From a virus (taxonomy: Duplodnaviria; Heunggongvirae; Uroviricota; Caudoviricetes), in the IMG/VR virus record IMGVR_UViG_2859805564_000001: a stretch of 64,000 nt of DNA; one strand, 5' to 3'. The position numbers were made by a program. Of the stretch, positions 54,001-64,000 are shown in pieces. Numbering within the stretch: the first letter of the stretch is position 1; the number at the start of each line of letters is the position of its first letter.

Positions 54001-57000
54001 TTCGGCAACGATCTTCCGTCGTCTCCAGTGGAGTGGCTGACGGATAATGGTTCATGCTACCGGGCTAATGAAACACGCCAGTTCGCCCGGATGTTGGGAC
54101 TTGAACCGAAGAACACGGCGGTGCGGAGTCCGGAGAGTAACGGAATAGCAGAGAGCTTCGTGAAAACGATAAAGCGTGACTACATCAGTATCATGCCCAA
54201 ACCAGACGGGTTAACGGCAGCAAAGAACCTTGCAGAGGCGTTCGAGCATTATAACGAATGGCATCCGCATAGTGCGCTGGGTTATCGCTCGCCACGGGAA
54301 TATCTGCGGCAGCGGGCTTGTAATGGGTTAAGTGATAACAGATGTCTGGAAATATAGGGGCAAATCCATTGATTAAGCACATCATCATAGCTGAGAGAGC
54401 ACACCAAGAATCTCTTGTTAAGCAAAAGCGTATAGCTCAGGTCTGGAACCATAAAACACAGCTTGCAAGAGAACTTAAGAAGCCTATGGGTAAGCAAGCC
54501 CCCGGATGGTTAGAGCTATCAGAAGATGGTTCATACTACATCGTTGATGAAGATAAAGCGTCACTGGTGAATATCATCTATGACAAGCGTCTTTCTGGTA
54601 TGTCGATGTTTGCTATCTGTAAATGGCTAAACGAACAAGGTTACCTGACCATTAATCAGCGTAAGGTCAGAATATCCAAGACTAAGAAACCGGATGGCAA
54701 CTGGTCAGCATTAAGCGTTAAACACATCCTGACTTCACGAAGTGTATTAGGTTACCTTCCCGCTAAGATTTCTACAGAAGACCGTAAAACAGTGTTACGT
54801 GAAGAAATTGAAGGGTTCTATCCTCAGATTGTCACAGACTCTAAGTTTTACGCTGTACAGCAACTGTTAGAGGAAACAGGGAAGGGGAAAACATCCAGCG
54901 GTGAACACTGGCTATATGTGAACATACTGAAGGGGCTTATCCGTTGTAAGTGTGGGCTTGTAATGACTCCTACAGGGATACGTAAACCCGTTTATCAAGG
55001 TACTTACCGTTGCAATGGTAATAAGGAGTCCCGTTGTAGCTACGGTACAGTGTCCAGAAAGTTACTTGATACACAGCTTTGTAGTCGTCTGTTTAGCAAA
55101 CTGTCACAGCTACACGATGAAGCTACCGATACAGCTAAATTAGATGAACTACAAAGAAGATTAAACACCGTTGATGGTGAACTGGAAAAACTCACTGAGA
55201 CGCTGATACAGCTTCCTAACATCACTCAGATTCAAGAAGCACTACGGGTTAAACAGGAAGAAAAAGATGAACTGATAGTTCAGTTATCACGAGAAAAGGC
55301 GAGGGTAAAATCTGTATCAAGCTTGGATTTAAGCGGTCTTGATATGGAGTCTGTAGAGGGGAGAACTGAAGCCCAGATTATTATTAAGCGTCTGGTGAAA
55401 GAGATTGTTGTTTCTGGTAATGAAAAGCTGGTGGATATATATCTTCACAATGGAAATATGATTCGTGGTTTTCCTCTTGATGGTAAAGATGACCACACCT
55501 TAACGCTTGAAGAAGCAACCGATGAGATGCAGTCATTAGATGATATGCTTATTTTTGGTGAACCAGTAACAAGGATTTATCCTGCTGGTGATATGGAAGA
55601 GGTGGACGCTTAGTATTTTTTGTTAGGGTTCACTGAGTGCGTATTCCGCTCTATTCGATCACGGATTGGCATCGAAGTTCGATCAGCGATTCGCATCCAT
55701 TCGATCAACCGGGAACTTAACTTTTTCTACCGCTTTTTAACTCGTTTTTTCGCTGCTTTCCACTGTCGGGGGATTTTTCCTCAGGGACTCTCCCTGAAGG
55801 ACCACTCTGTGTGAGTTATGTACCAGTCTGTCCAGGATGGCATCTGCTGTTGTTGGGTTCTCCATCAGACCATGCCATTTATCTACCGGGAACTGGCTTA
55901 CCACTATCGTGCTGCTTTGTCCGTAACGATCCTCTGTGATCTCCAGAAGGTCATTACACTGGGCGTTACTTAACTGTTCCAGCCCCAGATCGTCCAGGAT
56001 TAGAACCTGTATTTTTTGCAACTGTTTCAGATATTTCAGCCAACTGCCATCAACACGTCCCTGAGCCAACTGTTCCAGTAATCGCCCGGTTCTACAGTAC
56101 CGGACGCTGTATTTCTGTCGACATGCCTGTTCGCCCAGCGCATTGGCTATCCAGCTCTTACCGCATCCTGTCGGACCGGTTATCAGTAGGTTTTTCCTGT
56201 GGATTATGTAGTGGCCGTTCAGCAGTTCCCTCATCTGTTCAGCCCGCAGACCTCTTGAGGCCGGATAACGCAGCCCTTCCGGTGTTGCCTGATATTTCAG
56301 GCAGGCATTTTTTCTCAACCGTGCCACACGACTGTTTTCTCTGCTCAGAAGCTCGTCATCAACCAGCAGTGTCAGCCTTTCCTCGAACGACAGTTCGTCG
56401 TAAGTCTGAGGCGTTTCCCGTTGCCGTATCAGGCTCCCGGCCATCGCCGGGAGTTTCAGTTGGGTCAGTTTGTTTAACAGATTATCACTCATACGGTTGT
56501 TCCTTCTGTCAGTGATAGTAGCCAGGACCACGCAGGTTTTCATGCTCTGAAGCATATGCCGGATGTTGTTCGCCCTGGCGGGATAACGGAAGCTCAACGT
56601 TATCCCGATGATGACGCAGCAGATTGTCGATAAAGCGTCTGTCCGGGGCGTTATAGTGCAGGGCAACGTAACAGGCCTTTTCCAGCCGTTCCGGGCCGTA
56701 TTTTTTCTGAAGTGCCAGCAGACCCAGGACTGCACGGTAAGCCAGCTCCGGATGGGGTTTGGCTTTCAGCATGGATTCAACCACCCGGCCTGTGGACGGA
56801 CCTGTACGGTTTCCCTGCTCGATAAGGCGTTCCGGTGTCCATGTCCCATGCCGCCGGTGGCGTTCTGGCATGTGAAGCGGATTGGTTGTGTGTTTATATT
56901 CATGTGTGCTGCGCGGATGTTGCGCCACACACTGCCCCTTGTGCCAGAGCTGTACCACCGACTGCCCCACCTTCAGTGACAGACGCTGACCGACCAGTTC

Positions 57001-63000: not shown

Positions 63001-64000
63001 TATGCTTGTCAATATACGTTGACGCTTCAAAACAATGCATGAAATAGATATTAAAGCCCGACCTGTTCAGGTCAATCAACCAATTCATGGTTTCTTGGTC
63101 AACCATAATTTGCATTGGGTAATTCATTTTTAAAATCCTTCCTGTATCGCATTCTAAGACGTTTTAACCCCTTTTTTAGACCACTTAAGGCGATTCCCTA
63201 AGTTACCCTGATTAGGGGCTTAAAAACGTTTCTGGTGCGTCTGGTAAAGCCTGAGAGATATGTTTTGCTGTTTTTAGCTCAAGTCTGAGACTAATAGCCC
63301 CATCTGGTGACCGTAGTCTTTTAACCAGCTTTGCTTAACCGGAGTCTTCAGAGAATAGTTAGGGGCTGACAAGTGAAGATAGATATCATCTTTGCCGTGG
63401 ATACTTCCCCATCCTTCGTATAACTCAAGCAAGTTTTCAAAATAACGAAATGCTTTATTAGTCTGAAGTTGTACTGTGATAGTTTTCATCAAGCACCCCA
63501 TTCAGAAATAAGCTTAATTCCCTGCTCAAGCTGTTCAGGGTCGTTATAGTCGAGTATTACCAGTGGCTTTAATTCGTGTTTAAGCTGGTGGATTTGAGAG
63601 GGTTTTAATCGTTTGTTTGCTTTGAGGGTCACATCTTCAAATTCAGCATCTGCTAAATTCTGTCTGATTAGGTGGCGGCCAAGTGTGGAATATTGGAACC
63701 TATAACACATTAAACCTCCAATCTATCCGCCAGTTGATGGACCTTAGCGCTTAACACCTGAATCATTGAGCAACCTGCTACTGCGGACTGTGCTTTGAGT
63801 AGTTCCAGTTGGCCCGTTGTGATTCTGATGGCCTTAGAACCCTCTGCGACGCCCTTAACGTTATCGAAAGGGCTAAGGTTTACCGACTCTTTTAAAATCT
63901 CCCCAACAAGCGCTGTGTGCTTCATATCGGGATATTTGGCTTTGATTGCTGCCAGTCGTTCAAATGCCTCTGGCAAAAGGCGCGTAACTGTGTGAGTCAT

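Follow-up and report, generated by a model that had tools for sequence, protein, structure and literature searches.

To our knowledge, Vibrio is the only genus from which satellites of virulent phages have been described in detail (PLE, PICMI). The PLE of Vibrio cholerae is a satellite of the virulent myovirus ICP1 that is integrated by a large serine recombinase; it supplies a tape measure protein, a tail chaperone and (in PLE11) a baseplate hub of its own, giving chimeric tails, and for other satellites there are hardly any reports of tape measure genes, putative ones being reported in some cfPICIs (PMC12987554). Satellite-encoded tape measure proteins and chimeric tails were first demonstrated in 2026, and a satellite with tail genes of its own is an existing concept. 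Here we examine a chromosomal island with its relatives in Escherichia coli; the left 11.4 kb of this island stand at positions 52562-64000 of IMG/VR record IMGVR_UViG_2859805564_000001, a stretch of 64,000 nucleotides that we call the window, next to a Shiga toxin (Stx) prophage. The island carries a tape measure gene and a tube-initiator gene whose homologues are adjacent in virulent Felix O1-like phages (Felixounavirus), and because it has its own versions of these two tail genes together with control DNA of the same phages, it is likely a parasite of, or a defence against, them. We describe its boundaries, mobility modules and homologies, the selective conservation of its genes and the specificity of its noncoding matches to phage DNA, and weigh what such an island may do.

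The likeness to PLE is an analogy taken from descriptions of PLE and not a sequence comparison with PLE genes, and no family membership is claimed. Both are compact chromosomal islands that have a large serine recombinase and are, or appear to be, aimed at a virulent myovirus. Both have their own tape measure gene and a hub-proximal baseplate gene, homologous to adjacent genes of the (in our case presumed) helper, which PLE uses for chimeric tails; a replication-initiator-like protein, predicted in wrbA-type islands, may be a further point in common. The differences lie in the host (Escherichia, Shigella and Salmonella here) and the phage (Felixounavirus), in size (~11.5 kb for the island, roughly 18 kb for PLE) and in the site of integration, which for the islands is within protein-coding genes (wrbA, yecE) or beside tonB. 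The second tail gene encodes a tube initiator like gp18 of phage Bas63, not BhuB, and is ~73% identical to its phage counterpart (>90% in the N-terminal domain), compared with 20-41% for the PLE proteins; and the island is without a recognisable tail chaperone, TcaP-like scaffold or nuclease.

Two other groups invite comparison. PICMI, PICI/cfPICI and P4-like satellites use tyrosine integrases. Like the island they are small integrative elements, which exploit a helper phage, and PICMIs are minimalist and target virulent phages (PMC10803314). The island differs from them in having a serine recombinase and tail genes of virulent myovirus origin, and searches of its proteins against Pfam, PHROGs and NCBIfam returned no homologue of AlpA, Pri-Rep, capsid, Sid/Psu/delta/epsilon or small-terminase proteins. 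EPIPs, satellite candidates of mycobacteria, combine a serine integrase with a tape measure gene of their own, by which they are proposed to modify the tails of the helper (PMC12822802). Unlike the island, EPIPs add genes for a terminase small subunit, capsid, scaffold and adaptor, and their helper is a temperate phage in Actinobacteria; here too the likeness is an analogy only.

Homology to Felix O1-like phages

The features of the window on which the comparison with phages turns are these:

52562-64000, no strand assigned: integrative island, left 11.4 kb, collinear with intact islands at wrbA (L002) and yecE (L001) after removal of insertion sequences (IS)
59126-61306, minus strand: tape measure protein gene, intact, 726 amino acids (aa), with matches to the Pfam TMP_3, TIGR02675 and phrog_4036 profiles
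58284-58969, minus strand: body of the tube-initiator gene (Dit-like; database label 'phage baseplate protein'), its frame shifted by the loss of 74 bp between 58822 and 58821
55610-55638, minus strand: end of the tube-initiator gene, that is, its last 7 codons, its stop and one copy of an 8-bp target duplication, a 100% match to L001 11980-12008

The map of open reading frames (ORFs) and the composition profile place these genes in a minus-strand string that runs from 64000 down to ~58225. An earlier note on this DNA had recognised a tape measure gene at 59126-61306, and three profile libraries confirm it: Pfam TMP_3 (PF20155; 77 bits against a cut-off of 41, E=2e-21), TIGR02675 (61.7 bits against 21.35) and, in a PHROG profile search, phrog_4036 (E=5e-96). 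The note's description of the module as AT-rich and unlike the Stx phage morphogenesis genes also holds, with a GC content of 39.8% over 58284-64000 against 50.6% in the rest of the window and no resemblance found to those genes.

The full-length phage matches of the tape measure protein are virulent Felixounavirus-type myoviruses of 82-89 kb, at 29-34% identity among the matches listed; none of these is close, and no phage record was found with a close homologue, the best being <60% identical. This homology to virulent phages changes the biological meaning of the module, and speaks against its being what is left of a temperate prophage. The tube initiator is 72-73% identical at the amino acid level to the product of the gene right after the tape measure gene in ~250 Felix-like phages, and its DNA is 86-96% identical to that of phage REP8 (up to 96% in the 5' region). 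The intact tube initiator of L002 matches PDB entry 9ndy_A, 'Tube initiator protein (gp018)', at E=8.7e-110, Pfam Dit_like (PF21821) with 68.6 bits (cut-off 24.2, E=7e-19) and phrog_3721 at 3.5e-126; the window's copy has the same sequence as this homologue, but is broken by the 74-bp deletion and by the insertion sequence ISSso4. In the island the tube-initiator gene lies 3' of the tape measure gene, the order found in Felix-like phages; the tape measure gene is the homologue of gp17 and the tube-initiator gene that of gp18, direct neighbours in those phages. No further tail genes surround the island pair, the two genes upstream being without similarity to tail chaperones, and the remaining island proteins gave no tblastn match to a complete Felix-like genome.

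Conservation within the two proteins is uneven. In Bas63, gp18 bridges, as a hexamer, the step in symmetry from trimeric hub to six-fold tube; it consists of a tube-like fold and a ~100-aa C-terminal extension running through the baseplate, and the tape measure protein gp17 touches the hub and puncture apparatus with its C-terminal 25 residues (PMC12609058). In the island tube initiators, the N-terminal, tube-like ~185 aa are almost identical to the phage protein (>90%; 75-96% at the DNA level, depending on the island), whereas in place of the phage's C-terminal baseplate extension they have alleles particular to the islands. The tape measure protein has its first ~45 aa and last 13 aa (…LLSSSYPEEE) in common with its phage counterpart, around an interior that is 12-35% identical to the phage and 34-50% identical between islands, and at 691-726 aa it is 20-55 aa shorter than the phage protein (742-749 aa). 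Thus the island pair, which unlike gp17 and gp18 of Bas63 and Felix O1 is found in a chromosome beside an integrase gene and without other virion genes, appears from these alignments to retain the phage contact regions.

The likeness extends to noncoding DNA. For a 361-bp noncoding stretch of the island, Felix-like phages are the only matches among 50,697 phage records. In this copy the matching patches lie at ~66684-66817 (extended coordinates), at the far end of the island and outside the window. Two of them map to positions 531-552 and 653-694 of phage Pr103Blw, flanking the boundary of its annotated direct terminal repeat (DTR) at 581/582; this genome was deposited from its physical ends, with annotated 581-bp DTRs (PMC8303462). 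A third maps to Pr103Blw 9006-9066, a divergent promoter region just upstream of a gene. DTR-boundary and promoter-type patches recur in L001, L002, L011 and L016, L002 also has a phage-type terminator, and the GC content of the islands (39-40%) equals that of the phage (38.7%). In REP8, positions 78774-80570 (L007 41775-43571) form a 1.8-kb gene-free region packed with short direct repeats, including CTTGTTAG and CTATAAAG arrays; by synteny with Pr103Blw this region contains the terminal repeat, with the noncoding matches of the island situated at its margin. Record GU169904.1, deposited as 'Staphylococcus phage SA1', holds a full-length Felix O1-like tape measure gene and is probably mixed or contaminated.

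The island family and the damaged copy in the window

The core of the island, from the tube-initiator gene to a gene for a 236-aa protein, is present in 484 of 5426 complete E. coli genomes (~9%), always on the chromosome; a single genome may have relatives in as many as five places, most of them 80-95% identical and with mosaic coverage. Intact relatives measure ~11.5 kb, have a GC content of ~39-40% and occupy three or more attachment (att) sites. Annotated examples at wrbA, yecE and tonB-yciI have the same architecture and different serine recombinases, and a distant member, L025, keeps this architecture at 58% identity. The shared order is the recombinase gene and then, convergently, the tube-initiator gene, the tape measure gene, a gene of ~70 aa and the 236-aa gene, followed by a conserved promoter and leader and by variable small genes that sometimes include an HNH endonuclease gene; a Dam-like methylase is usual in full-length examples, and a small resolvase frequent. 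Genes for head, terminase, sheath, tube or lysis functions are absent from the seven relatives with gene order examined (L001, L002, L011, L012, L013, L016 and L025) and from the annotation lines of ~40 spread matches. Pairwise ratios of nonsynonymous to synonymous divergence (dN/dS) are 0.1-0.4 for every gene compared, also where synonymous divergence exceeds 1. From these ratios, the family appears to be maintained by selection, with only individual copies decaying (the window's and L012). Database names place homologues in Salmonella, Shigella, E. albertii and E. marmotae, a range that overlaps the host range of Felixounavirus; a scan of one genome per species with the tape measure protein found nothing beyond E. 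albertii and a Shigella flexneri locus riddled with IS.

The left part of the window's copy contains the following:

52520-52561, minus strand: 42-bp 5' fragment of wrbA (K-12 codons ~5-18), a 95% match to K-12 wrbA (L003 3656-3697)
52634-53037, plus strand: N-terminal part of the large serine recombinase gene (resolvase catalytic domain), cut by IS2, DNA 96% identical to the recombinase gene of L002
53038-54368, plus strand: IS2, 1331 bp, in the recombinase gene, with target duplication TTGAT at 53033-53037 and 54369-54373
54369-55613, plus strand: C-terminal part of the recombinase gene (recombinase domain, zinc ribbon, coiled coil; ORF 54342-55613), DNA 98% identical to L002 10740-11983
55639-58275, minus strand: ISSso4 (IS21 family, istA/istB), 2637 bp, with 8-bp target duplication CACTGAGT at 55631-55638 and 58276-58283

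Comparison of attL, attR and attB puts the att core of the island, AAAGCAC(C/T)AG, at ~52552-52561, the right edge of the wrbA fragment, in wrbA codons 4-7. The wrbA site is unoccupied in K-12, and in E. coli MSB1_9I the island stands alone between wrbA and ymdF. In the window, homology to the Stx prophages of O104:H4 and O111:H8 stops at 52561, the end of the Stx prophage being 52519 (junction 52519/52520), so that wrbA holds two independent elements at separate attachment sites 35 bp apart, within its first ~18 codons. The left limit of the module, earlier set at 55625, therefore has to be moved to ~52562, which takes in the IS2-split recombinase gene at 52634-55613. On the other side the full copy extends ~4 kb past the window to ~68037 (extended coordinates), an extent taken from L016, where the island meets K-12 homology, and the full island is thus 15.5 kb long with its two IS and ~11.5 kb without them. 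In L002, several copies of a CTGCATAGATAGCG-like motif lie within ~240 bp of the attachment site, at the attR end of the island (21560-21800), AACTGCATAGATA occurring three times alongside variants; these repeats could be recombinase accessory sites or iterons. In strains that have the island only, it gives wrbA a new start, with 201 aa annotated against the 198 aa implied by the 597-bp K-12 gene.

The same damaged copy is found elsewhere. L016 reproduces window positions 52520-64000 with one mismatch in 11,481 bp (99.99%), including IS2, ISSso4 and the 74-bp deletion, and its island adjoins an intact wrbA, the Stx phage being absent there. Because the same decayed copy thus lies beside intact wrbA without the Stx phage, the decayed island is older than the Stx phage insertion. 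The long-read confirmation of the assembly that had been proposed is not needed, since an independent complete genome has the 11.5-kb arrangement with that single mismatch. Thousands of public assemblies, L016 among them, encode exactly this tape measure protein. The 236-aa protein is identical to one that NCBI names from Shigella sonnei, the species after which ISSso4 is named. The host is probably S. sonnei, and the decayed island was already fixed in the host lineage before the Stx phage integrated.

The damage itself can be read base by base. The tube-initiator gene starts with an ATG at 58969 and loses its frame after codon 49, between 58822 and 58821, where, in alignment with the intact homologues of L001, L002 and phage REP8, 74 bp are absent (REP8 23287-23360). 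The earlier note had placed the gene at 58225..58966 with a break about 50 codons in; the gene and the break stand, the start does not. It had also allowed for a programmed frameshift. This was rejected, and the break is a mutation, because no homologue has the two-frame arrangement: those of L001, L002, L011-L013 and the phages are single, uninterrupted ORFs, whereas the window's copy is short by 74 bp. ISSso4, which was identified by a 100% match to elements annotated 'IS21-like element ISSso4', by an IstB_IS21 Pfam match and by its multiple terminal repeats, lies inside the gene, 7 codons ahead of the original stop. The 3' part of the gene does, as had been noticed, read into the element (ORF 58225-58536 enters it by ~50 nt), and the original stop persists across it at 55610-55612. 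Once the 74 bp are restored and ISSso4 is excised in silico, the remainder reads through without a further stop. The module is therefore interrupted and not truncated, nothing being missing beyond the IS.

The recombinase gene is convergent with the tube-initiator gene and their stops overlap by 4 bp, as in intact relatives. Its uninterrupted counterpart in L002 encodes 547 aa with Pfam Resolvase and Recombinase matches above their cut-offs, a Zn_ribbon_recom match below its cut-off and a phrog_95 integrase match at 4e-78. The junction sequences and the comparison with this uninterrupted gene delimit the IS2 insertion, and IS2 is annotated in relatives as well. Both IS2 and ISSso4 are simple insertions with intact target duplications, so nothing has been rearranged, and removing both restores collinearity with the relatives. 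Hence the insertions damaged a pre-existing unit and did not build it, contrary to the suggestion that the module had been assembled by successive IS insertions. With its recombinase and tube-initiator genes inactivated, the window's copy cannot work as a whole; the tape measure gene, the 236-aa gene, a 68-aa gene and the promoter and leader are all intact. An independent yecE island in E. coli DC71 (L012; NZ_CP101615, 1913-10341) has the IS21-like ISEc12 in its recombinase gene and IS2 in its tape measure gene, and the AT-rich islands of this family seem to be recurrent IS targets.

Explanations of the island

We consider it probable that the island is a phage-directed element aimed at Felixounavirus, either a PLE-like satellite or an anti-phage island, which has been inactivated in the window's copy. 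In such an element, the large serine recombinase would integrate the island (here in wrbA codons 4-7), and the island would lie dormant until a Felix O1-like phage infects, when it would excise and replicate. Its tape measure and tube-initiator proteins would then dock into the baseplate hubs of the phage through the conserved contact regions, and the outcome would be either chimeric tails that serve the transfer of the island or poisoned phage tails. The phage terminase may package the island by way of its terminal-repeat-like DNA, a candidate packaging signal. For the PLE satellites of V. cholerae and phage ICP1, such a strategy has been demonstrated by experiment. The more specific version, in which the island is a true satellite of virulent Felix O1-like myoviruses that places its own tape measure protein and tube initiator in the phage baseplate, makes chimeric tails and is packaged through a mimic of the terminal-repeat boundary, and so is an E. 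coli counterpart of PLE and ICP1, is quite possible and is put forward tentatively.

Several points weigh against this interpretation. Induction, replication, packaging and interference are deduced from sequence. The assignment of a replication initiator concerns a 325-aa helix-turn-helix protein of wrbA-type islands, encoded outside the window, whose four best replication-initiator PHROGs have modest E-values (6e-9 to 9e-7) and whose Pfam HTH_36 match is below the cut-off; in islands of the yecE and tonB types other genes take its place. Both conserved proteins encoded upstream (68 aa and 236 aa) are orphans, with models of low to moderate confidence. Profile and similarity searches found no recognisable capsid-size determinant, small terminase or tail assembly chaperone, and the matches in viral collections are prophage calls in isolate genomes and not virion DNA. 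The terminal-repeat-like patches are short (22-63 bp) and 74-95% identical, they could be promoters or operators instead of packaging signals, L013 has no detectable patch, and L012 matches a different part of the DTR. Finally, a non-exhaustive literature search found no published description of the island family or of any Felix O1 satellite; it likewise found no published wrbA/yecE serine-recombinase island, and the family is apparently undescribed so far.

The alternative that survives best, which we nevertheless hold to be unlikely, is that the island serves defence only: its copies of the tape measure protein and tube initiator would be dominant-negative decoys that enter Felix O1-like baseplates and abort the assembly of the tails, protecting the population, and the island would never be packaged. 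A poison subunit would require just this mixture of kept docking regions with divergent bodies and extensions, a tape measure interior diversified between islands (34-50% identity) is as expected in an arms race, and profile searches found no capsid-remodelling or packaging genes. Defences that target tail assembly are also documented, for instance Rta in PLE11 (PMC12987554). However, the replication-initiator matches and the DNA resembling the phage terminal-repeat boundary are hard to explain on these terms, and a tape measure protein that is near phage length and under purifying selection along its whole length suggests real measuring work. PADLOC recognised no known defence system, only an orphan methylase, a result that counts both against defence and against our broader interpretation.

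Passive capture is improbable. Here an unrelated island would have taken up two phage genes and noncoding scraps in abortive Felix-like infections and carried them as neutral cargo or as a recombination reservoir. Recombination between phages and the islands' hosts clearly does occur: the identity of the 5' region of the tube-initiator gene to phage DNA reaches 96%, and recombination signals between Felixounavirus vB_EcoM_DE7 and E. coli chromosomes have been reported at an uncharacterised 544-bp locus, not recognised as prophage by PHASTER (PMC11069274). Yet no family member examined lacks the gene pair, even where the synonymous divergence of the tape measure gene exceeds 1, the termini are kept while the interior is free to vary, and dN/dS is 0.1-0.36; neutral cargo would not persist so uniformly.

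Slightly more improbable still, and largely refuted, is the explanation, close to the earlier note's, of a decayed second temperate prophage, its functionless tail module left behind by deletions and IS rearrangements: a distinct phage-related element does abut the Stx prophage, its tail genes are bona fide, its serine integrase is of phage type and the copy is visibly decayed (IS2, ISSso4, the 74-bp deletion), with similar IS damage in L012, but its relatives are complete islands under purifying selection, with one compact gene set in every one examined (six annotated or IS-containing loci at three att sites) and the same gene labels or order around the core in L025 and the ~40 spread matches, without virion or lysis genes, and Felix-like phages have no integrase and match no other island gene.

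If a phage-directed role is correct, the island would be an E. coli equivalent of the Vibrio systems, directed against Felix O1-like phages, for one of which (Bas63) a full virion structure exists, and would offer a tractable model of tail hijacking or poisoning. Its presence in ~9% of E. coli could then explain differences between strains in susceptibility to Felixounavirus, phages that are used for Salmonella typing, biocontrol and therapy. For annotation, the trio of 'tape measure / baseplate / transposase' genes in these genomes should not be read as a prophage remnant.

Upstream genes, leader and the neighbouring Stx prophage

Upstream of the tape measure gene, the rest of the island within the window comprises:

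61405-61611, minus strand: 68-aa conserved orphan gene, directly 5' of the tape measure gene, with 59 homologue clusters, all Escherichia
61636-62346, minus strand: 236-aa conserved island-specific gene, with 3119 close clusters in Escherichia, Shigella and Salmonella
62347-62720, minus strand: conserved, near-consensus promoter TTGACA-17-TG-GATGAT (62720-62692) and structured leader of ~340 nt, preceding the 236-aa, 68-aa, tape measure and tube-initiator string
62822-63127, minus strand: small island ORF, 101 aa, no family match
63274-63501, minus strand: small island ORF, 75 aa, no family match
63489-63710, minus strand: small island ORF, 73 aa, no family match
63710-64000, minus strand: small island ORF, 96 aa, no family match

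The 236-aa family is narrow, with only ~5 full-length distant representatives in 1.84 billion proteins. Its NCBI label is 'transposase' in hundreds of records, which looks like a propagated misannotation because there is no Pfam, PHROG, PDB or fold evidence behind it: the protein has no match in the first three, its AlphaFold2 model (pLDDT 66) consists mostly of long helices, at 68-100 and 170-235, and a Foldseek comparison of this model with the PDB gave nothing below E=0.37. The 68-aa protein was modelled as one helix and a small beta unit (pTM 0.29). Neither protein has sequence similarity to the tail chaperones of Felix-like phages, and confidence in the AlphaFold2 models of both is low to moderate. 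A terminator-like hairpin with a 15-bp stem and a T run (61344-61379, minus strand) stands between the 68-aa and tape measure genes, ~40 nt 5' of the start codon of the latter, and could act in attenuation or antitermination.

In an alignment of five islands, positions 62347-62821 (minus strand) contain long invariant blocks even though the genes have diverged, and this stretch 5' of the 236-aa gene may hold a regulatory leader or a small RNA. The consensus fold of the leader comprises a 5' stem-loop with compensatory changes, an invariant hairpin of ~27 bp (~62463-62374) and a stem over the Shine-Dalgarno region, which in this predicted fold could mask the Shine-Dalgarno sequence; most of the predicted pairs are invariant across islands, so the structure is unproven. 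An Rfam scan gave no credible match, the leader included, and matches in a promoter and terminator scan were not enriched over shuffles. Farther upstream, 62822-64000 varies between islands: the four small ORFs are common to L002, with dN/dS of 0.18-0.29 where comparable, and 62754-63707 is without a match in L001. Many islands have small HNH endonuclease genes where the window's copy has other small ORFs (L011 13946-14233, L013 13940-14227, L012 12774-13061), and in L012 the Dam-like methylase is substituted by a 174-aa HNH/AP2-type protein (15686-16210). Since phage terminases are often assisted by HNH proteins, those of the islands could bear on packaging.

Three features of the neighbouring prophage complete the window:

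15197-16153: stxA, Shiga toxin A-subunit gene (RIP family)
25599-27743: P22-like portal gene, which marks a short-tailed Stx phage
43594-52014: 2806-aa ORF just ahead of the prophage end, annotated in relatives as an LPD38 domain-containing protein

We also considered whether the tape measure gene might be part of the Stx phage, and rejected this. The Stx phage is short-tailed, because its portal is P22-like, and a phage of this type has no need of a tape measure protein; moreover, the Stx homology stops at 52561, ahead of the island.

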